A stretch of 64,000 nt of DNA from an uncultured Bacteroidales bacterium (GCA_900317715.1 ONHS01000004.1:18481-82480), one strand, 5' to 3'. Shown: positions 24,565-63,350, numbered from the stretch's first letter. Numbers and translations are program-made. Notes: a model not told the origin generated them from the letters alone.

Positions 24565-25416
24565 CTATTGTTCGCCGTTGGCAGGCCAAGGATTGGTCTC
24601 AATGCCGGCCATGCGCACCATGGCAGCGTGCGCTTCTTGGCAAACGCGGTCGAGCTCCTCCTTGCGGTTCTTGGTCTTGTCGAAAAAGATCGGTTCCCCG
24701 ACGTGCAAGGTGACGCAAGGAGAATTTTTCTTGCCGAACAGACGGTAAATACCCTTTCTCTCGCGGAATGTATAGACATTGGGGATGATGGGACGGTCGT
24801 ATTTGTAGGCCATTGAGAAGGCACCGCGTTTGAACGGACGAATCGGGACGTACATGTTCCATCTGACCGTTTCAGGGAAGATGATGAACCAGAGTTTACG
24901 GCGATTAAACTCGTCGAAAGCTTCGTTGAATTTGCGGATGCCTTCGCGGGTTTCGGGAATGGGAATGCCGCCCGCTTGCCACAAAATCCACCAGGCACGT
25001 CCATTGAAGTGCTTGGCGAACATCGGGATACGCACCTGTTTGTAACGCTGCCATGCTGCATTCACGCCCAATGCATCGAACACGAAAACGTGGTTGCATA
25101 TGCACATAGCCCCCTTGTCGGCCAATTCCTTCTTGTATTTTCGGATAATATCCTTGCCTTCGATTTTTAAGCCGAAATGGCAACGGTTGTGGATGGCCAC
25201 CAACAGCCATTTCACGATAAATCCGCCAATGCAGTTTAACTTGAAACGCCACGAATCATCCAGATAGGGATATGTCTCGTCGAACTGGAAGCGTCCTTTG
25301 GTGGAATCTTCCACTTCCACGTTGAGCAGACGTTTGTAAGGATTGTCGGTAGGGTAGTCGATACCGATGTCGGGGATATAGACCCCGTCTTTCACTTTGA
25401 GGGTGCCATATTCCAT
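24565..25416 (-). CDS. lysophospholipid/1-acyl-sn-glycerol-3-phosphate acyltransferase family protein (PlsC-like)
   Basis: 283 aa. HX4D-type motif (CNHVFVFD), FPETVRW and RPFKRGAF blocks. Confidence 0.75.
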   Translation of the reverse strand: MEYGTLKVKDGVYIPDIGIDYPTDNPYKRLLNVEVEDSTKGRFQFDETYPYLDDSWRFKLNCIGGFIVKWLLVAIHNRCHFGLKIEGKDIIRKYKKELADKGAMCICNHVFVFDALGVNAAWQRYKQVRIPMFAKHFNGRAWWILWQAGGIPIPETREGIRKFNEAFDEFNRRKLWFIIFPETVRWNMYVPIRPFKRGAFSMAYKYDRPIIPNVYTFRERKGIYRLFGKKNSPCVTLHVGEPIFFDKTKNRKEELDRVCQEAHAAMVRMAGIETNPWPANGEQ

Positions 25417-25422
25417 GTAGGA

Positions 25423-25953
25423 CTATTTTTTAACGATATTGCTCAGTTTGTAGGTGGTCACCGTGCCGTTGAACTCTTCAAGCACCATTTCCACAGGAAG
25501 ATTGTCGGATTTACGTGCGGTGACGATGATCTTGGAGTAACCACGCGGCGCCTGCTTCTTGGCAGTGATGGTGACAACCTTGTTGCCGCCTTTTTCCGTA
25601 ATGGTGATGTCCGCATTGTTGTCGGTTGCCGCCTGTTTCCAGTTGCCGTGGATGCAGTTCAGGAGCGTGTTGCGATAGGTACGCATAGCGGCGTTCTTCT
25701 CGGTGTCCATCACGGATTTCTTGCCTCTGAGGTTCATTTTGATGGATTTGCCGTCGATGATGAAGTAGTCGCCTGCAGGTTTGGTGTAGGTCATTTCCAT
25801 TTTGTCTTTACCCACCAATTTCAGGGTGCCTTCCGATTCGATGGTTTTGCCGGAAGCCTTGATGAATGTGCTTTGTTTAAACTGACAGTTAACGGTTTGT
25901 GCCGACGCGATAAAGCCAGCCAGCATCAAACAAACAAACATTAATTTTCTCAT
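25423..25953 (-). CDS. LolA-like outer-membrane lipoprotein carrier / lipid-binding protein
   Basis: 176 aa. Signal peptide (GFIASAQ). The size and strand pattern (F.Q...SG...ES.G.L.L) resemble LolA-fold proteins. 6-nt gap to the acyltransferase gene. Confidence 0.5.
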   Translation of the reverse strand: MRKLMFVCLMLAGFIASAQTVNCQFKQSTFIKASGKTIESEGTLKLVGKDKMEMTYTKPAGDYFIIDGKSIKMNLRGKKSVMDTEKNAAMRTYRNTLLNCIHGNWKQAATDNNADITITEKGGNKVVTITAKKQAPRGYSKIIVTARKSDNLPVEMVLEEFNGTVTTYKLSNIVKK

Positions 25954-33529: not shown

Positions 33530-35194
33530 ATGAAAAAGAAAAAGAAACAGATTGAGCCGACGAGGCATTTTTTTACATACTACAACCGGACTATTCCTGA
33601 GAATTGGAATTCGCCTGCTCTTACAGATTACAATGGCACAACCAGTTACACCTATGGTGAGATGGCTGCACAGATTGTGAAGCTGCAAATGATGATGCAA
33701 GACTGTGGCTTGGGACGCGGCGATAAGGTCGTGATTTGCAGCCGTAATTGCTCCAATTGGGCGGTCGCGCTACTGGCCATTGCCGCCAATCGTGGTGTTA
33801 TCGTCTCCATCATGGATGCTTTTGCGCCCACCGACATCGAAAATTTGACCAACCACTCGGATGCCAAAGCGATGTTTGTGAGCCAGAACGTATGGAAAAA
33901 CATTGATGTACAGCATTTGGAGAATGTCAACTTGATTCTCGACACCGATGATTTCCAGTTGTTGTACGCACGTGACGAGCAACAGGAGAGGGCTTTCGGG
34001 CAATATAAGGACAAATATCGCGAAAAATATCCGCGCGGACTGAATCGCGAGGACATCAATTTCCCGACCGACAATTTGGACGATTTGATGATCATCAACT
34101 ATACCTCGGGCACTACGGGTGCACCGCGCGGCGCGATGCTGAGCTATCGCAACATCTCCGCCAATGTGCAGTACAGTCAGGAGGAGATCCCCAACCACGC
34201 GGGCTGGACGGAAGTCTGCATGCTGCCTCTTGCACACATGTTCGGGATGACCATCGAATTTCTCTACCAGGTGGCGGGAGGTTGTCACGTCTATTTCTTG
34301 GGTAAAACCCCGTCCCCGGCCACGCTGTTGAAGTGCTACGCCGAGACCAAACCTTACATGATTCTGACGGTGCCGTTGGTGATTGAGAAGATATTCAAGG
34401 CCAAGATTTTCCCCGCTTTGGCGAAACCGAGCGTGAAGGTGCTGTGGAATACACCGATATTGTGCAAAGTGGTAGAGAAAAAGATTTACCAGCAGCTGAT
34501 GAATGCCTTCGGAGGCAACCTGATATGGCTGATCACAGGCGGTGCCGCGCTGAACCAGGAAGTTGAGCGCGTGTTGCGTCGCATCAAGTTCCCGTTGGTG
34601 GTGGGCTACGGCATGACGGAAGCAGGTCCGTTGGTGAGTTACGAGCATTGGTACAAACAGACGCTCGGCTCCTGTGGCAAAGTGGTGACGCGCAACGAAA
34701 TCATGGTCAACTCGCCCAACCCGAGACAAGAAGTCGGCGAAATCCTCTTCCGTGGCGAGCACGTGATGATGGGCTACTACAAGAACGAGGAAGCCACAAA
34801 AGCTGCCATCGACAGCGAAGGTTGGCTGCACACTGGCGACCTCGGACTCATGGACAAGTTGGGCAACATCTATATCAAAGGTCGTAGCAAAGCGATGATT
34901 CTCACCGCCGGCGGCCAAAATATCTATCCCGAGGAGTTGGAGGCCAAACTCAGCAACCTGCCGGGTGTCTCCGAAGCACTGGTGGTGGGTCGCAACGGTA
35001 AGCTCGTGGCGTTGGTCTATCCCGATCCCGCCTTCGATTGGAGCGCCATCTCCGTTGAGGAACAGATGAAACAGAATTTGCAGCAAATCAATACTTTGGT
35101 GGCTAAGTACGAACAGATTGCCGCCATTGAAACCGTCGATCAGGAGTTTGCGAAGACCCCGAAGCGGTCGATCAGGAGGTTCTTGTATAAGTAA
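33530..35194 (+). CDS. long-chain fatty acid--CoA ligase (AMP-binding family)
   Basis: 554 aa. AMP-binding motif (YTSGTTGAPRGAMLSYRN), GYGMTE, and TGDLG...YIKGRSK. Confidence 0.85.
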   Translation: MKKKKKQIEPTRHFFTYYNRTIPENWNSPALTDYNGTTSYTYGEMAAQIVKLQMMMQDCGLGRGDKVVICSRNCSNWAVALLAIAANRGVIVSIMDAFAPTDIENLTNHSDAKAMFVSQNVWKNIDVQHLENVNLILDTDDFQLLYARDEQQERAFGQYKDKYREKYPRGLNREDINFPTDNLDDLMIINYTSGTTGAPRGAMLSYRNISANVQYSQEEIPNHAGWTEVCMLPLAHMFGMTIEFLYQVAGGCHVYFLGKTPSPATLLKCYAETKPYMILTVPLVIEKIFKAKIFPALAKPSVKVLWNTPILCKVVEKKIYQQLMNAFGGNLIWLITGGAALNQEVERVLRRIKFPLVVGYGMTEAGPLVSYEHWYKQTLGSCGKVVTRNEIMVNSPNPRQEVGEILFRGEHVMMGYYKNEEATKAAIDSEGWLHTGDLGLMDKLGNIYIKGRSKAMILTAGGQNIYPEELEAKLSNLPGVSEALVVGRNGKLVALVYPDPAFDWSAISVEEQMKQNLQQINTLVAKYEQIAAIETVDQEFAKTPKRSIRRFLYK

Positions 35195-55142: not shown

Positions 55143-57578
55143 TTATGCTTTGCCTCCGAGATGCTCCACTCTCCGCTTCATGAACGGGATTTTCATGAGC
55201 CAACGGAAGAATAGCGGCTGTAACGTATAGGTAATCAGGATGGTGGAAATCATGCCGATCAACGCGCATTCGCCGATGGAGACGATGGTCGGATGTTTCG
55301 CGAACAGCATGGCCGCCATCACGACAATCAACACCAAGCCCGAAAAGAAAATGGCCACCTTATGGTACTCCAACAGTTTGCTTCCCTTCATACACTCTTT
55401 GTTGATCAACCCTTTCATGACGAAAATGCTGTAATCGACACCGATACCGAAGATGAAGGTGGAAATCACAATGTTGATCATGTTGAAGGAAAGACCGAGA
55501 ATCGCCATCCAACCTTGCACCACATACCAACTCACAAACATCGGCATGAAGGCGAGCAGCGATATCAAAAGGTCTCTAAAAGAGAAGAGTAGCACCACAA
55601 ACACGAAGATGGAAGAAATGAGCAATGCCATCTTGAAGTCTTTGTGAATCAGGGCAATCATGCCTCCTGTGTAATATAAGGGGTCCATCACCACGACATG
55701 CGGTCTGGAGGCGACCAAATCGCTGACATCGCCCACTTTGTCTTTGTTCAACTGCGGAGCGTTGAAGATCAAATATTTGCCATCGGTTTCTTCAATAAAG
55801 TTGCAGAGCAGTCCTTCGGGGACAATTTCTGACTCGTAAAGGTTGCCGGGCTCGTATTCCGCCTCGATCATCGCCTGGAACGGCACGAAAATGTCGGGTG
55901 AGAGCTCGTTTTTCGCTGCAGCTGATTTCACGGCGGCCATGGCTTGGGCCACCTTCTCTGGGGTCCAATAACGCTGCCAAGCGGCGATACGGCGTTCCTG
56001 TTCCGCCTGCGACTGGAACATGAGCGACGCCACCGGCGTGTAGTTGATCAGGTCGCCGGTCTTGCGCAAGGAATCCAAAGTGGCGGAAATCGCCATGTTG
56101 GCATCCAACGCCTGATCCAATTCCGTGGCCGTTACCGCATAATAACGTTGCACACCGCCGTGATCGTTTTTCTCGGCATACAATTGTTGGGATTTCTTGA
56201 AAGCTTCGCTCTCATAACCGATGTTTTTCAAATCATTGTCAAACTGCACCTTGCCGGAAAAGATGAACCCGACGACGATGACAATGCACAAAGCGGTGAT
56301 GATAATCGGATTACGGTCGTATGGGTAATTGTTGATTTTGTCAATCAATTTGAACGCTTTTTTACTGTGTTTGGCATCCTTGACATTCAGGAAATGAGGC
56401 AGGAAGACCAATGCGAAGAAGGTGCTGCCGATGAGTGCGAAGGTGGCGAACAGACCGAAATCCTTCAGCAGCTCACTGTCGGTAAACATCAGACCCAAAA
56501 ACGCGCCGATGGTGGTGAGACAACCGAGACATACGGGGATGGCCTCTTCTTTCAACATCTGTTCCACATCGCCCACAAACCGCTGATGTACAATCACATG
56601 CAAGCAATAGCTGAGCGCAACACCCAAAATCACGGAACCCACGCCCAACGCCATCAACGACATGCCACCCTTGATCCAGTACATGCAGGCCAAAGCGAAA
56701 ATAGTGCCGTAGAGGATGGGCAGCAGATTCTGCCAGATGATATTGTAGCTCTTGAAACTGAGGCACAAATAGAGGAGGATCAGCACTAAAGAGACACCGA
56801 TGGTGAGGGCAATGTCCCGTTTCATGGTGCTGGCGTTGTTGGCGGATTCCACCACTGCGCCATGCATCAGCACTTCCACCTCTGGGTGCTTCTCGTTGAA
56901 TTCTTGGATACAATCGCGAAGATGGTTGATGAGTTTACCGCCTTCTTGAGAGTTGAAAGTCTGGAAATCAGGAGAGATGAAGATCAACGCCACAGTGCTG
57001 TCGGCGCAGAAAAGATGTCCGTCGATGAGGGTGAAGCCCATGCCGCCGGCGACATCGGGCATCAGGCACTCGCGCAGTCCTAGCGGGTCGGTGGAGACCA
57101 ACTCGGAGACCATGCCGGTTTCATCGTTCATGATCATTTCGTAGTTGCGGGCCATCGTCTCGTCGGCGTGCGCGATAGCAGAGTCGAAACGGGCGTACAT
57201 CGTCGTGTCCACGAACGACGGTACATGCATCATCGCGTAGTCGAGCGCGTTGAGCGCCATGTCGGGCTCCAGACGATAGAGCGTGTTGGCGATGCCTTCG
57301 TCGTTGGTGAGGATGGAATCCATCAGTTCATCCACATATCCGACCAACGCCTCGGGTTCCGCACCCGTCATCTGCATGAAGAGTTTGTCCTTGACTTTCA
57401 CATTGCCGAATACCAAATCGCACTCCGATTTGTCAGTTTTTGGTAAAAGTTTCATCAAATCTTCCTCAAAATGCGCCTTTGATGCGAAAAAGGCAAAAAC
57501 GGCACTACTTATAATAATTAAGGTATATAACAGCCATTTGTGCTGCGTGAAAAATCGGTAAATCTTTACAAAAAACAT
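55143..57578 (-). CDS. MMPL/RND-superfamily predicted lipid exporter
   Basis: 811 aa. Two blocks of about 6 TM helices, each preceded by a large soluble loop, as in COG4258-type predicted exporters. Confidence 0.8.
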   Translation of the reverse strand: MFFVKIYRFFTQHKWLLYTLIIISSAVFAFFASKAHFEEDLMKLLPKTDKSECDLVFGNVKVKDKLFMQMTGAEPEALVGYVDELMDSILTNDEGIANTLYRLEPDMALNALDYAMMHVPSFVDTTMYARFDSAIAHADETMARNYEMIMNDETGMVSELVSTDPLGLRECLMPDVAGGMGFTLIDGHLFCADSTVALIFISPDFQTFNSQEGGKLINHLRDCIQEFNEKHPEVEVLMHGAVVESANNASTMKRDIALTIGVSLVLILLYLCLSFKSYNIIWQNLLPILYGTIFALACMYWIKGGMSLMALGVGSVILGVALSYCLHVIVHQRFVGDVEQMLKEEAIPVCLGCLTTIGAFLGLMFTDSELLKDFGLFATFALIGSTFFALVFLPHFLNVKDAKHSKKAFKLIDKINNYPYDRNPIIITALCIVIVVGFIFSGKVQFDNDLKNIGYESEAFKKSQQLYAEKNDHGGVQRYYAVTATELDQALDANMAISATLDSLRKTGDLINYTPVASLMFQSQAEQERRIAAWQRYWTPEKVAQAMAAVKSAAAKNELSPDIFVPFQAMIEAEYEPGNLYESEIVPEGLLCNFIEETDGKYLIFNAPQLNKDKVGDVSDLVASRPHVVVMDPLYYTGGMIALIHKDFKMALLISSIFVFVVLLFSFRDLLISLLAFMPMFVSWYVVQGWMAILGLSFNMINIVISTFIFGIGVDYSIFVMKGLINKECMKGSKLLEYHKVAIFFSGLVLIVVMAAMLFAKHPTIVSIGECALIGMISTILITYTLQPLFFRWLMKIPFMKRRVEHLGGKA

Positions 57579-57629
57579 ATCAAATCTTTATAATTCTATA
57601 CAAAAAAAACTCTGCTAATTTAGCGGCGG

Positions 57630-57637
57630 CAAAAGTA
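57630..57637 (-). promoter_or_regulatory. -7 box TActTTTG for the MMPL exporter
   Basis: The reverse complement of caaaagta matches. Lies 52 nt upstream of ATG 57578 and forms one half of a palindrome with 57651-57658. Confidence 0.6.
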
Positions 57638-57650
57638 CACAAATTTTGTG

Positions 57651-57658
57651 TATCTTTG
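57651..57658 (+). promoter_or_regulatory. -7 box TAtcTTTG for the Spt-like/SDR operon
   Basis: tatctttg, 145 nt before ATG 57803. Confidence 0.55.
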
Positions 57659-57766
57659 CCGCTTCTTAAATTGATTGGTTTAGTGGGGCTTAGAAATGTT
57701 AAAAAAACTGAAAATCAGAAAAATGAGGGAATGGCTAGACCGATTCGATTTTTTGATTATGCATGA

Positions 57767-59790
<2,024 letters not shown>

Positions 59791-59814
59791 CGGGAATATT
59801 CAATGTTCCCACAG

Positions 59815-59853
59815 GTAGAGACGCGCCAATGGCACGTCTCTACTTTTGTTTTT
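59815..59853 (+). terminator. terminator after the SDR gene; near-identical copy of the glyQS terminator
   Basis: GTAGAGACG-cgccaatggca-CGTCTCTAC followed by ttttgttttt. Confidence 0.75.
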
Positions 59854-60967
59854 ACATGTGGCGTTTATACGCTCTTCTGCGCATGAACGGGTGGGTGATA
59901 TATTCGCCGAACAACGATTGCACCTTGTAATTTTCCTCCAGTTGCGGGTTCATGATGATGGTGTCGATACCTCGTTTGATGCAGTTTTCATGCAGGTATT
60001 TGAACATCAACATCGGAATGCCACATTGTTGATACTCAGGTAACACGCCCATGATCAAGGCTTCCAGGGTGTCGTTTTTCTTCAACGCCTTCATGATGCG
60101 GATGAAACCGAAGGGGAACAGACGACCGTTGGATTTTTTCACCGCTTTCGAGAGGGATGGCACGCAGAAAAGGAAGCCTATCGGCTGGTCTTTGTCGTTG
60201 ACGGCCACCGCCACGAAATCCTTGTCCAAAATAGGTACGTAAGTTTTCAGATACGAATCTATCTGCTTGTCAGTCAGGGGTGAAAAACCGTGCAAAGGAG
60301 CAAACGCTTCGTTGTACATGTGGAAAATTTCCATGCCGTAGCGCTTGCACATGTCGTTCATGCTTTTCGGCTGGACAACGTGCACGTGGAATCTATCCTC
60401 AATCAATTTAGAGAATTCGAACATTTTGGGCAATGTCTTGCTCACCTCCAGCGTACGTTGGGTCCAATCCACCTCTTTCGTAAAGCCAAGCTTCTCCAAC
60501 ATGGGTCCGTAGTAAGGATAGTTGTAGAGGCAGGTGAAGGGGCTCAAATGTTCGAAACCTTCCACCAGCAAGCCTTCCTTGTCCATGTCGGTGAAACCCC
60601 ACGGACCGCGCATGTCGGTGCGATCGCGTTGGCGACCCCATTCCGCAACGGTGTCGATCAGGGCTTTGAGAACTTCTTCGTCTTCGATGAAGTCCAACCA
60701 TCCGAAACGTACGATATGTTGCTCGTTGGTGGCCTTGTGGTTGATGATAGCGGCCACGCGACCTACGATCTCATCGCCGCGATACGCTAAGAAACAGTCG
60801 GCTTCGCAAAAGTCGTAAGCCCCGTTTTTCTTAGGTTTGAAGGTGTCGTATTCATCGCCTTCCAAAGCGGGCACCCAATTGGCACAATCTTTATATAAAT
60901 GAAGAGGAAAAGTCACAAACAGCTTCATCTGCTTGCGACTTTCCACCTTGACGATATTGATATTCAT
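59852..60967 (-). CDS. GNAT-fold N-acyltransferase-like protein (371 aa, family not firmly recognised)
   Basis: Two-lobed protein. The N-lobe pattern is FPLHLYKDCANWVPALEGDEYDTF...GDEIVGRVAAIIN. The C-lobe carries an acyl-CoA-binding-like LPEYQQCGIPMLMF motif (Q/R-x-x-G-x-G/A-like). It is the last gene of the ligase-ACP operon. Confidence 0.6.
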   Translation of the reverse strand: MNINIVKVESRKQMKLFVTFPLHLYKDCANWVPALEGDEYDTFKPKKNGAYDFCEADCFLAYRGDEIVGRVAAIINHKATNEQHIVRFGWLDFIEDEEVLKALIDTVAEWGRQRDRTDMRGPWGFTDMDKEGLLVEGFEHLSPFTCLYNYPYYGPMLEKLGFTKEVDWTQRTLEVSKTLPKMFEFSKLIEDRFHVHVVQPKSMNDMCKRYGMEIFHMYNEAFAPLHGFSPLTDKQIDSYLKTYVPILDKDFVAVAVNDKDQPIGFLFCVPSLSKAVKKSNGRLFPFGFIRIMKALKKNDTLEALIMGVLPEYQQCGIPMLMFKYLHENCIKRGIDTIIMNPQLEENYKVQSLFGEYITHPFMRRRAYKRHM

Positions 60968-60981
60968 ATTTTAATTTTTTT

Positions 60982-61065
60982 GGGAGTAGGGAATAGGGAG
61001 TAGGCTTTAGACCACCTGAACCATAAACCATAAACCTTAAACTCTATACCATAAACTAAATAGTG
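60982..61065. repeat. heptanucleotide array, 12 units (GGGAGTA/GGGAATA x3, ..., TAAACCA/TAAACCT/TAAACTC family)
   Basis: Fills the spacer between the ACP stop (61056-61058) and the start of the GNAT-like gene (60967). Confidence 0.9.
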
Positions 61066-61298
61066 GAATGAGCCGTGATGTAGTCAATCACTTCGCCTAC
61101 GGTCTCGAATTTTGGGGTCCCTTCGAATTTGAATCCGAACTTGTTCTCAACGGCGAGGCTGAGCAACAGGATGGTGAGGGAATCAAGACCGACATCGCGG
61201 ACGAGTTGTGACTCCTCCGTGACCGTAGTCAGATCCATAGAGGGCTTTATGAGTGTCAGAATCTCTTTCAATTCTTTTAAGATAGCTTCTCTTTCCAT
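61056..61298 (-). CDS. acyl carrier protein
   Basis: 80 aa. Phosphopantetheine attachment motif DVGLDSLT. Starts 4 nt downstream of the ligase stop. Confidence 0.85.
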   Translation of the reverse strand: MEREAILKELKEILTLIKPSMDLTTVTEESQLVRDVGLDSLTILLLSLAVENKFGFKFEGTPKFETVGEVIDYITAHSTI

Positions 61299-61302
61299 TG
61301 AT

Positions 61303-62799
61303 TTATTGATTACGTGAAACTTTCAGAGCACCGGTACGTTTGAAGTCCTCCTTGCGCACGGTGATTTTGCTGACTTGGTGCGTGCTCGGCAGCGTGGCGT
61401 TGACCTTGCCGACGAGTTCCTTGAAGTAGGCCTCGACCTCTTCCCAAGGTGCGTTACCGAATTCGTCGATACGCGGCAGGATTTCGATGGCGATCACCTT
61501 GCGGCCGTCCATTTCGTCTTCCTTCACCAAGCAGTCGCGGAGTTTGTTGTCCTTGTAGAACGGTTCCTCGATGCTTTCGGGGCTGATGTTCTCGCCGTTG
61601 GAGAGGATGATCAGGTTCTTGATGCGGCCCACGATGTACATGAAGCCGTCTTCGTCGAAGCGGACGAGGTCGCCGGTTTTGACCCAGCCGTCGGGCGTGA
61701 GAGTCTCAGCGGTCTTTTCGGGCTCGCCATAGTAGCCGAGGAAGACGTTGTCGCCACGGAACCACAATTCGCCATCAACCACCTTGGCTTCCTGTTCGGG
61801 ATAGAGCTTACCGACAGACGTGGGTCTGGTTTTCACGTCGATGTTGCCGGTGGTGAGGTTAGCACCTTCGGTCATGCCGTAGCCGCCGAAGAGGTTGATG
61901 CCCAGCTCGTCGAATTCGCCGATGAGTTTCGGGGGCACGTTGGCAGCGCCGGAAATGATGACTTTGAGTGCGCCGCCAAGGAAGTTCTTGCCGTACATTT
62001 TAATGAGTCCCAGCAAGATTTCGCAGATACCGGGAACCGCCACAATCATGGTAGGTCTGATCACAGGCAACTTGCCGATGGTGTCTTTGGTGTTACCCAC
62101 AGAAAACCAGGAAGCACCTTTATAAAGAACTGACAATGTGCTGAAAATCAATCCGAAAACGTGGCTGAGCGGCAACACGCATGCGTAACGGTGGCAACCG
62201 AGTTGATGTCCCGGAGCGTAGAGGCCGTTCAGTGCGCCGCGCATCAAAGCACGGTGAGGCAGGATAGCGCCTTTCGGTGCGCCCGTCGTGCCGCCCGTAA
62301 AGAAGATGGCAGCTGGATCGTTCTTGTCAACCGTGGCAACCGGTGCGGTGTGGTCGGCCATATCCGAAATGGCGATCACCTTGCAGGGAGCCTCTTTCAC
62401 TGCTTCGATGAAGGATGGGCCGGCGGCCAGCACCTTCACGCCGAACTTCATGCAGCAGCCGACGATAGCCTGTGCGGGCAGCATAGCCGGCAAGTTGATG
62501 GCTACATAACCGCCAGAGGTGGCAGCGAGGAAATACTCCACAGCATCGGTGGTGGAGTTGTCCAAGATGGCGACTTTATCGCCTTTTTGCAGACCGAAGC
62601 TGTTGAGGAGGGCGCGTTTGCGTGCCACACGGTCACAGACTTGGCTGTATGTATAAGTGTTCACCGTATCGGAAAGACACGGCAGATCGGACCATTTTTG
62701 TTCAATCCAGGTTACAAATTCGGGAAGAGTGGGAATGTACTTCACCTGCGCGAGCTCCTCGGCAGGAAGCATTGAAGGGAAATAATTATTTTCTTGCAT
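61303..62799 (-). CDS. AMP-dependent synthetase/ligase (acyl-ACP synthetase / fatty-acyl-AMP ligase-like)
   Basis: 498 aa. FFTGGTTGAPKGAILPHRAL, GYGMTEG, and TGDLVRFDEDGFMYIVGRIKN. Confidence 0.85.
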   Translation of the reverse strand: MQENNYFPSMLPAEELAQVKYIPTLPEFVTWIEQKWSDLPCLSDTVNTYTYSQVCDRVARKRALLNSFGLQKGDKVAILDNSTTDAVEYFLAATSGGYVAINLPAMLPAQAIVGCCMKFGVKVLAAGPSFIEAVKEAPCKVIAISDMADHTAPVATVDKNDPAAIFFTGGTTGAPKGAILPHRALMRGALNGLYAPGHQLGCHRYACVLPLSHVFGLIFSTLSVLYKGASWFSVGNTKDTIGKLPVIRPTMIVAVPGICEILLGLIKMYGKNFLGGALKVIISGAANVPPKLIGEFDELGINLFGGYGMTEGANLTTGNIDVKTRPTSVGKLYPEQEAKVVDGELWFRGDNVFLGYYGEPEKTAETLTPDGWVKTGDLVRFDEDGFMYIVGRIKNLIILSNGENISPESIEEPFYKDNKLRDCLVKEDEMDGRKVIAIEILPRIDEFGNAPWEEVEAYFKELVGKVNATLPSTHQVSKITVRKEDFKRTGALKVSRNQ

Positions 62800-63032: not shown

Positions 63033-63350
63033 ATGGAACTTCAAAACATCCAAGAATTCGAGCTTTACGCCCTGTTGTATGTGGCGGCGCTGGATATGAA
63101 AACCAGTAAGGAAGAACAAAAGTTGATTAACGCCAAGATGGCGGGCGAATCATTTGAGCATGTGAAGGACATGTTCGAGCAAGACAATGATGCCCAGCGA
63201 GTGCAAACGATTACGCAGGCGGCTGCAAAGTATCTCAAGACCGACGAACAAAGAGCAGCGTTTATGGACGAGCTCAAAAAGATGGCCGCAGCCGACAGCA
63301 CCACTCCCTTTGAGGCCGTCGCCCTTTCCATGTTGGAGAATCTTCTTTAA
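63033..63350 (+). CDS. hypothetical small helical protein
   Basis: 105 aa, all-helical and acidic, with its own -7 box 25 nt upstream. No family recognised. Confidence 0.5.
   Translation: MELQNIQEFELYALLYVAALDMKTSKEEQKLINAKMAGESFEHVKDMFEQDNDAQRVQTITQAAAKYLKTDEQRAAFMDELKKMAAADSTTPFEAVALSMLENLL

Follow-up and report, generated by a model that had tools for sequence, protein, structure and literature searches.

A compact gene cluster of an uncultured Bacteroidales bacterium that probably encodes the synthesis of dihydroceramide

The stretch of DNA considered here comprises 64,000 nucleotides of a contig from an uncultured Bacteroidales bacterium (GCA_900317715.1 ONHS01000004.1:18481-82480) and contains a group of six genes, five of which (57803-62799) probably form a compact cluster for the biosynthesis of dihydroceramide, the sphingolipid backbone, as judged from homology and gene context. 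These five encode a candidate serine palmitoyltransferase (Spt), a short-chain dehydrogenase/reductase (SDR), an acyl-AMP-forming ligase, an acyl carrier protein (ACP) as well as a 371-aa protein with a GNAT fold, while the sixth encodes an MMPL-type membrane transporter. The analysis covered this 64-kb stretch, hereafter referred to as the window, together with short flanks, and all coordinates refer to the window unless another contig is named. An original prediction, made from the nucleotide sequence before any comparison with databases, had described a compact lipid-synthesis island at this location. The map of open reading frames (ORFs) of the window reproduced all six genes at exactly the predicted coordinates, and every domain was confirmed by Pfam. 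The fine structure was likewise as described: the stop codon of spt and the start codon of the SDR gene overlap in an ATGA, the TAA stop codon of the ligase gene is followed after 4 nt by the ATG of the ACP gene, and the DSL motif of the ACP lies at the position given for it. The features of the locus are collected in Table 1.

Table 1. Features of the locus and of a second, separate group of genes within the window
Feature	Position	Strand	Length	Remarks
PlsC-like acyltransferase	24565-25416	-		Pfam Acyltransferase; tblastn with L088 partner
LolA-like protein	25423-25953	-		Pfam LolA; tblastn with L088 partner
MMPL/RND-type membrane transporter	55143-57578	-	811 aa	Pfam MMPL; cluster membership doubtful
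MMPL-Spt divergent intergenic region, presumed promoter region for both genes	57579-57802		224 nt	Sequence reading
Candidate Spt, alpha-oxoamine synthase of CFB/Bacteroidota type	57803-58999	+	398 aa	PLP-lysine K244; NF047600
KdsR-like SDR, candidate 3-ketodihydrosphingosine reductase	58996-59790	+	264 aa	ATGA-coupled to Spt
Convergent spacer with two hairpins, between the Spt-SDR unit and the bCerS unit	59791-59851		61 nt	RNA fold
bCerS/YghO-family tandem-GNAT N-acyltransferase, candidate bacterial ceramide synthase	59852-60967	-	371 aa	Homology to YghO
ACP, phosphopantetheine serine in DSL (residues 39-41)	61056-61298	-	80 aa	Pfam PP-binding
Acyl-AMP-forming ligase (ANL superfamily), candidate acyl-ACP synthetase	61303-62799	-	498 aa	Pfam AMP-binding

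The pyridoxal phosphate (PLP)-dependent enzyme of the cluster is predicted to be a serine palmitoyltransferase, which would catalyze the condensation of L-serine with an acyl thioester. It scores 659 bits against the NCBIfam model NF047600 (SerpalmtaseCFB), exceeding the curated equivalog cutoff of 640 by a small margin, with an alignment over residues 5-394 of 398, the Pfam domain Aminotran_1_2 at residues 44-386 (E 1.5e-58) and the PLP-lysine motif TFSKS at residues 241-245. In a sequence search of the PDB, the top match was the serine palmitoyltransferase (SPT) of Sphingobacterium multivorum (3a2b/8guh) with 545 bits, compared with 304 bits for the top BioF/KBL-type chain, 262 bits for E. 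coli KBL (1fc4) and about 211 bits for BioF, so that by bit score the enzyme groups with SPT and not with BioF or KBL, the alternative grouping that the original prediction had kept in view. Its identity to the Spt of E. coli B is 35% (E 2e-79).

The amino acid substrate, serine or cysteate, had been considered unreadable from the sequence, and it proved readable to a fair degree, leaning clearly to serine. In the same PDB search, the cysteate-C-fatty acyltransferase 28eh reached 262 bits and 7u7h, which is presumably the Alistipes SulA, 240 bits. A pathway to sulfonolipids (capnine or sulfobacin), in which the PLP enzyme would be CapB/SulA, the SDR a CapC-like dehydrocapnine reductase and the GNAT-fold protein the N-acyltransferase, would employ the same enzyme classes, since an alpha-oxoamine synthase and an SDR are common to both, and Alistipes SulA uses acyl-ACP, which would fit the presence of a dedicated ACP. 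Nevertheless, this pathway is highly improbable and was ruled out by the pass of the curated Spt model together with the PDB bit scores, which are roughly twice as high for SPT as for the cysteate-type enzymes; in addition, no cysteate synthase was recognised in Pfam scans of the larger ORFs of the window, that is, in 64 kb of the genome. The initial description of the product as a sphingolipid, a sulfonolipid or an N-acyl amine lipid can accordingly be narrowed, the sphingolipid (dihydroceramide) part having held and the sulfonolipid part having fallen on the bit scores.

The SDR encoded in translational coupling with Spt finds its best NCBIfam family in NF049977 (KdsR, BT_0972 type) with 333 bits, which is below the curated cutoff of 400, and the next family scores about 100 bits lower. 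The characteristic motifs are present as TGISSGFG (residues 6-13), NNAG (73-76) and YSASK (139-143). The Rossmann fold begins at residue 2, so the protein is expected to be cytoplasmic and free of a signal peptide, and a basic GTVRR motif follows beta-2, presumably indicating a preference for NADP(H). Beyond the window contig, the Spt-SDR pair is retained in six contexts with differing flanks (L007, L087, L090, L091, L092 and L093; loci used for comparison carry L numbers) and constitutes the invariant core across contexts. Because KdsR is the best family match, the coupling to spt is conserved and a signal peptide is absent, the SDR would be expected to reduce 3-ketodihydrosphingosine (3-KDS), and the proposal that it serves as the reductase of the cluster is borne out at the level of a candidate. 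An assignment to CerR, the epimerase-type ceramide reductase (CCNA_01222 or E. coli B epi), was ruled out, since the SDR gave no significant alignment with E. coli B epi. A CerR-type gene was also sought by tblastn with E. coli B epi and was not found in the 64-kb window, the same query matching in L030, L032, L051, L070 and L072. The SDR is thus described here as a KdsR-like, and not a CerR-like, candidate reductase.

The relationship of the 371-aa protein to ceramide synthases was established by comparison with YghO of E. coli BL21. BLASTP aligned the two proteins over residues 3-371 at 28% identity (E 2e-43), and a profile of 48 family sequences aligned end to end with YghO in hhalign with a probability of 100% (E 6.6e-53). 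Pfam provides weak GNAT matches in both halves of the protein, and the AlphaFold2 model (pLDDT 77.7, pTM 0.73) resembles the tandem-GNAT structures 5kf1, 2wpw and 7q3a, at E-values near 1e-12 and TM scores of roughly 0.55-0.66; the PDB sequence search returned no significant match, and the protein was placed among known structures by fold search only. The bCerS family has no dedicated NCBIfam or Pfam model, and YghO itself has no Pfam match. At 50% clustering, the family comprises 5256 representatives, mostly of about 375 aa, and all of the 83 fetched GNAT loci match YghO, with E-values that range roughly from 1e-38 to 1e-46 among the matches listed.

The functional connection runs through known systems. 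The E. coli B genes yghO (aca), aasR, epi, acpR and spt represent the counterpart of Caulobacter CC_1154 and CC_1162-1165 (PMC9386255), and CC_1154 appears to be CCNA_01212 (bCerS), judging from the constant numbering offset between two Caulobacter strains. The use of CCNA_01212 as a query led to the B. fragilis CerS BF9343_4218, the knockout of which accumulates 3-KDS (bioRxiv 10.1101/2023.05.23.541633). The 371-aa protein, the role of which the original prediction had considered unreadable from the sequence, can on these alignments be placed in the bCerS/YghO family, with N-acylation of a long-chain base as its candidate function.

Two unusual forms of the family were encountered. Protein cluster P0122 (548 aa; members P0283-P0295), found on more than 100 contigs, includes a bCerS-family domain with 48% identity over residues 3-367, and its extra C-terminal part may be MsrA-like, judged only from the annotation of one 186-aa cluster member, from 'Candidatus Phocaeicola merdigallinarum', as methionine sulfoxide reductase MsrA. 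At L090 (11734-13857), the bCerS ORF continues in frame into a Peptidase_C10/Por_Secre_tail protein (707 aa called), reflecting either a lost stop codon or an artefact of assembly or gene calling.

The organization of the locus was compared with that of related genomes in a scan that covered a single genome for each GTDB species, and in which patterns derived from 15 sequences yielded 80 loci with the GNAT family. The six window proteins were mapped on the GNAT loci, followed by the E. coli B proteins (NC_012971.2), with flanks of bcerS extending up to 10 kb on either side, and the bCerS proteins were arranged in a neighbour-joining tree without support values. Three layouts were distinguished. 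In the first, the GNAT gene has spt directly upstream of it, as observed in Draconibacterium (L030), Sediminibacterium (L072) and several metagenome-assembled genomes (MAGs; L040, L051 and L070). Where a CerR-type gene stands immediately downstream (L030, L051, L070 and L072), this layout is the canonical spt-bcerS-cerR operon, and it is this context that confirms the role of the bCerS family in ceramide synthesis. These operons share with the window the adjacency of spt and a bCerS-family gene of the same families, and differ in having an epimerase-family reductase of CerR type and no ligase or ACP, where the window has a KdsR-type SDR and the ligase-ACP pair. The original prediction had been unable to place such an arrangement for this phylum; clustering turns out not to be foreign to it, as spt-bcerS-cerR operons occur in Draconibacterium, Sediminibacterium and other Bacteroidota. 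Duplication of the acyltransferase gene was also seen in this group: in L070 (7628-12079 of the Bacteroidales chromosome OY781965.2), spt is followed in a row by two tandem bCerS paralogues, 35% and 42% identical to the protein of the window, and by a CerR-type gene, and L071 also has two copies at one locus.

In the second layout, found in Bacteroides, Phocaeicola and Prevotella, the bCerS homologue (40-44% identity) stands alone. This agrees with the earlier statement that spt and the reductase gene are not clustered in Bacteroides, and the literature describes spt, the reductase gene and bcerS there as dispersed (PMC9278070; PMC11334938). In comparison with B. thetaiotaomicron (SPT BT_0870, KDSR BT_0972) and B. 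fragilis (CerS BF9343_4218, CerR BF9343_4240), the window has the same CFB-type Spt under the same equivalog model, an SDR closest to the BT_0972-derived KdsR model, and a bCerS protein to which the Bacteroides homologue is related over its full length. The differences lie in the arrangement, since in the window Spt and the reductase are coupled and stand beside ligase, ACP and bCerS, whereas the Bacteroides loci fetched (up to 10 kb around bcerS) have no ligase-ACP near the bCerS homologue.

The third layout characterizes a clade of rumen and gut Bacteroidales that is monophyletic in the tree and includes the window. Here, the ligase-ACP pair adjoins the GNAT gene in 13 species-level loci. 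Additional look-ups anchored on Spt at 83-88% identity yielded four contexts: L090 has Spt, SDR, ligase, ACP and GNAT in co-directional order, L091 has the convergent layout of the window, L092 has GNAT, Spt and SDR behind a CDP-alcohol phosphotransferase and is devoid of ligase and ACP, and L093 has Spt and SDR only. The arrangement is not attributable to chance, as three independent relatives from metagenomes (L087, L090 and L091) likewise have all five biosynthetic genes side by side, in two different orders. As for the surroundings of the close Spt-SDR relatives, those of L092 (5681-9991) and L093 (5903-9988) lie beside a CDP-alcohol phosphotransferase, and L092 additionally has a GtrA-like protein, an acyltransferase and a TetR regulator nearby; these neighbours are candidate head-group enzymes for phosphosphingolipids.

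It may be asked in this connection whether ligase, ACP and GNAT-fold protein form an independent module for an N-acyl amine or a lipoamino acid that came to lie beside Spt and SDR by chance. Such a reading could draw on the distance of more than 10 kb between the three genes and spt in most of the related genomes sampled, and on the lack of a curated functional model for the GNAT family. It is nonetheless very unlikely, as the three genes form one co-directional unit with Spt and SDR in L090 and adjoin them in the window, L087 and L091, and as the clade of the window GNAT protein groups in the tree (again without support values) with other Bacteroidota bCerS proteins, with E. coli YghO outside and with spt-adjacent loci on the basal branches. 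Moreover, the window shows no further candidate for bCerS.

The ligase and the ACP are less readily assigned to named families. The ligase, a divergent ANL enzyme, scores 188 bits against Pfam AMP-binding and contains the motifs TGGTTGAPK and GYGMTE; among NCBIfam models, families of long-chain fatty-acid ligases match best, each with a score far short of its cutoff, and the best PDB match reaches only 116 bits. The ACP scores 24.1 bits against Pfam PP-binding (cutoff 20.8), and its NCBIfam matches are generic ACP models only, all below cutoff. With E. coli B AasR, the ligase shares 25% identity (E 1e-17), and with AcpR, the ACP gives no BLASTP alignment at E <= 100. An identification of the two as orthologues of AasR and AcpR was ruled out, as AasR prefers another ligase of the window in tblastn (71 bits versus 59 bits for the cluster ligase) and the ACP is unlike AcpR. 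That other ligase, a FadD-like AMP-binding protein of 554 aa (33530-35194, plus strand), is presumably a housekeeping acyl-CoA or acyl-ACP synthetase.

The pairing of the two genes is conserved in at least 15 loci, the ACP gene adjoining the ligase gene in L005, L006, L008, L012, L013, L015-L018, L021, L022, L026, L087, L090 and L091. This conserved adjacency, the 4-nt spacing and the DSL motif sustain the earlier view of a dedicated pair, and the spacing and conserved pairing suggest that the ligase loads the ACP. The two would thus constitute a functional analogue of AasR/AcpR within a sphingolipid cluster. Across the loci compared, the presence of the pair follows the bCerS clade, not Spt. 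In the 13 species-level loci in which it adjoins bCerS, spt lies at a distance of more than 10 kb or on a different contig, and in L092, where Spt and SDR both share 84% identity with their counterparts in the window, the bCerS protein belongs to another clade (38% identity to the window protein, 45-47% to the Bacteroides type) and the pair is lacking.

The destination of the activated acyl group is the point on which two readings diverge. Because the pair travels with the bCerS clade and not with spt, acyl-ACP made by the ligase and the ACP could be the donor for N-acylation by bCerS, for which the chances appear about even. Alternatively, the pair may supply Spt, with acyl-ACP being condensed with serine as by AasR/AcpR in Caulobacter and E. 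coli B, in which case bCerS would use acyl-CoA. Supplying Spt is the sole experimentally established role of a dedicated ACP and ligase pair in bacterial sphingolipid synthesis (PMC9386255), and the co-directional unit of L090 places the pair near spt as well. This alternative is considered somewhat unlikely in view of the 13 loci in which the pair accompanies bCerS at a distance from spt, of L092 and L093, which have near-identical Spt-SDR pairs (83-84%) and no ligase-ACP nearby, and of the lack of orthology with AasR/AcpR. The remaining probability falls to acyl-ACP serving both enzymes or neither of them.

With acyl-ACP taken as the donor for bCerS, the pathway encoded by the cluster may be outlined as follows. 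Spt would form 3-KDS by condensing L-serine and a long-chain acyl thioester, and the coupled cytoplasmic SDR would reduce 3-KDS to sphinganine with NAD(P)H, in the order known from eukaryotes and B. thetaiotaomicron. The ligase would adenylate a free fatty acid and load it onto the adjacent 80-aa ACP, and the tandem-GNAT enzyme of the bCerS/YghO family would N-acylate the long-chain base to dihydroceramide, probably with the acyl-ACP formed by the ligase. Ligase and ACP would have been recruited independently of the Rhodobacterial AasR/AcpR pair, which feeds Spt. A more far-reaching form of this proposal is advanced only tentatively: this Bacteroidales clade of ceramide synthases may depend on a private acyl-ACP, loaded by a non-AasR ligase from free fatty acids of dietary, host or rumen origin.

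Several points weigh against the assignment of the cluster to dihydroceramide synthesis in the form given above. The SDR falls short of membership in the KdsR equivalog, and the link from the 371-aa protein to the characterized proteins of Caulobacter and B. fragilis is an indirect one, passing through YghO of E. coli B as encoded in the BL21(DE3) cluster. The dedicated ACP of Rhodobacteria feeds Spt and not bCerS (PMC9386255), and neither the acyl donor of bCerS nor the thioester used by Spt can be read from sequence. Furthermore, the coverage extends to 64 kb and short flanks, and a second bCerS, a CerR or a KdsR may be encoded elsewhere in the genome.

A comparison with the Rhodobacterial cluster (Caulobacter CC_1154/1162-1165; E. 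coli B yghO-aasR-epi-acpR-spt, NC_012971.2 2989282-2994885) puts these features into perspective. The same five roles are encoded together in both, and Spt (35%) and bCerS (28%, full length) are true homologues of the E. coli B proteins. In contrast, the reductase is a classical KdsR-type SDR here and an epimerase-type CerR there, the ligase of the window is no closer to AasR than is its FadD-like ligase, the ACP is unlike AcpR, and the ACP and ligase are tied to bCerS, whereas acpR stands beside spt in Rhodobacteria. The earlier statement that Caulobacter uses exactly these enzyme classes therefore holds for the five roles and fails for the exact match, with regard to both the reductase and the ligase-ACP pair. 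The flanks also differ, with lptF/lptG paralogues in E. coli and the MMPL gene in the window. In BL21(DE3), the genes annotated as lptG and lptF lie at NC_012971.2 2994920-2997066 (L085 4921-7067) beside the sphingolipid cluster and presumably encode extra LPS-export permeases, a neighbourhood that fits a preprint on LptFG homologues as sphingolipid transporters of Caulobacter (10.64898/2026.04.12.717747).

The MMPL gene, by contrast with the five biosynthetic genes, was tentatively taken in the original prediction for the cluster's own exporter, a weak proposal that draws on adjacency. The protein scores 47.9 bits against Pfam PF03176 (cutoff 20.5), and a crude hydropathy scan indicates 11 or more hydrophobic segments, separated by two extended stretches that are not hydrophobic, an RND-like topology. 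Its best NCBIfam similarity is to HpnN, with 135 bits where the model TIGR03480 demands 752 and 76 bits where NF052374 demands 1100, so that the protein shares MMPL domain and RND-like topology with HpnN/MMPL exporters and lies far outside the HpnN equivalog. A dedicated sphingolipid exporter, which would carry ceramide from the inner to the outer membrane, possibly by way of a LolA-like protein, in the manner of HpnN with hopanoids, would be consistent with this similarity to a lipid transporter and with the arrangement in the window and in L087, where the gene and spt diverge from a common intergenic region of 224 nt. In its favour, too, no sphingolipid transporter was found described for Bacteroidota in the literature searched, a 2026 preprint implicating LptFG paralogues in Caulobacter only (10.64898/2026.04.12.717747).

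The linkage data argue otherwise. In a sample of six MMPL-anchored and four Spt-anchored contexts, MMPL adjoins spt in two of the ten independent contexts, namely the window contig and L087, where the MMPL orthologue is divergent from spt and is followed by a LolA-like gene. None of the four Spt-anchored relatives (L090-L093) has MMPL within 8 kb of Spt. Orthologues with 69-86% identity occur in L088, L089, L094 and L095 within modules of DUF4249, MMPL, LolA and PlsC-like acyltransferase genes without spt nearby, so the usual partners of this MMPL family are not sphingolipid genes. The window itself has LolA-like and PlsC-like genes (24565-25953) with 72% and 74% identity to the L088 partners in tblastn, about 30 kb from MMPL. 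Because these partners have been kept 30 kb away, a rearrangement is indicated, and most likely MMPL came to lie beside spt in this way in a narrow lineage, as an unrelated or loosely related lipid-export gene; together with the HpnN scores far below cutoff, this makes a dedicated exporter quite unlikely. In relatives, namely several rumen Bacteroidales metagenome contigs, the LolA-like and acyltransferase genes directly follow the MMPL orthologue.

With respect to expression signals, the 61-nt convergent spacer folds into two hairpins, the second of which is followed by UUUU, with an energy of -30.6 kcal/mol compared with a shuffle mean of -11.4 (z = -7.74), and none of 200 shuffles folds equally well. 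The hairpins and the T-run suggest that the Spt-SDR unit ends here and is set apart from the convergent bCerS unit. Consensus scans for promoters and terminators gave counts at background level, and the convergent hairpins were missed by them and seen only by folding; a single sigma-70-like match lies at 57565-57594 near the MMPL-Spt intergenic region, such matches being no commoner than in shuffled sequences. Base composition is even across the window, and no sign of a mobile element was seen in it. An identical contig is present in ENA metagenome assemblies, and the closest genomes are Bacteroidales MAGs from rumen and gut.

Two further observations concern the non-coding and flanking parts of the locus. 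The spacer between the ACP and bCerS genes contains heptad tandem repeats with the units AACCATA (61019-61056) and GGGAGTA (60982-61004), and in L087 (5490-5627) this spacer has grown into a more extended GGTTATTG-like repeat, which gene callers interpret as an ORF of 45 aa. Just past the ligase gene, at 63033-63350 on the plus strand, a 105-aa ORF without Pfam or NCBIfam match is conserved in the identical or near-identical contigs L001-L004, and no match to it was found in the related loci L005-L084.

Sphingolipids of Bacteroidota shape host immunity and metabolism, and work on the genes for them has dealt with organisms in which these are scattered (Bacteroides, Prevotella and Porphyromonas). 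None of the enzyme families of the present cluster is new, and products of this class are to be expected in Bacteroidota. In the literature searched, no ligase-ACP-bCerS or Spt-KdsR cluster was found described in Bacteroidota, and three features are new relative to it: the genes are clustered in Bacteroidales, Spt is paired in an operon with a reductase of KdsR type, not CerR type, and a ligase-ACP pair that was recruited independently is tied to a bCerS clade. A generalization of the literature is also corrected by the survey, since ceramide genes are clustered in many uncultured Bacteroidales as well as in other Bacteroidota, with no fewer than three layouts, and the survey draws attention to a widespread DUF4249-MMPL-LolA-acyltransferase module in Bacteroidales.

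It is debated whether reduction takes place before N-acylation (the KdsR route) or after it (the CerR route). The block of roughly 5 kb described here can be cloned and expressed as a unit, providing a test bed both for the order of the reactions and for the acyl donor of the ceramide synthase. If the reading of a private acyl-ACP is true, an ACP-gated entry into sphingolipid synthesis would have been invented in bacteria a second time and independently, located at the N-acylation step and not at Spt. Together with the coupling of a KdsR-type reductase to Spt, this would set the order of the pathway in these organisms as Spt, KdsR and then bCerS.

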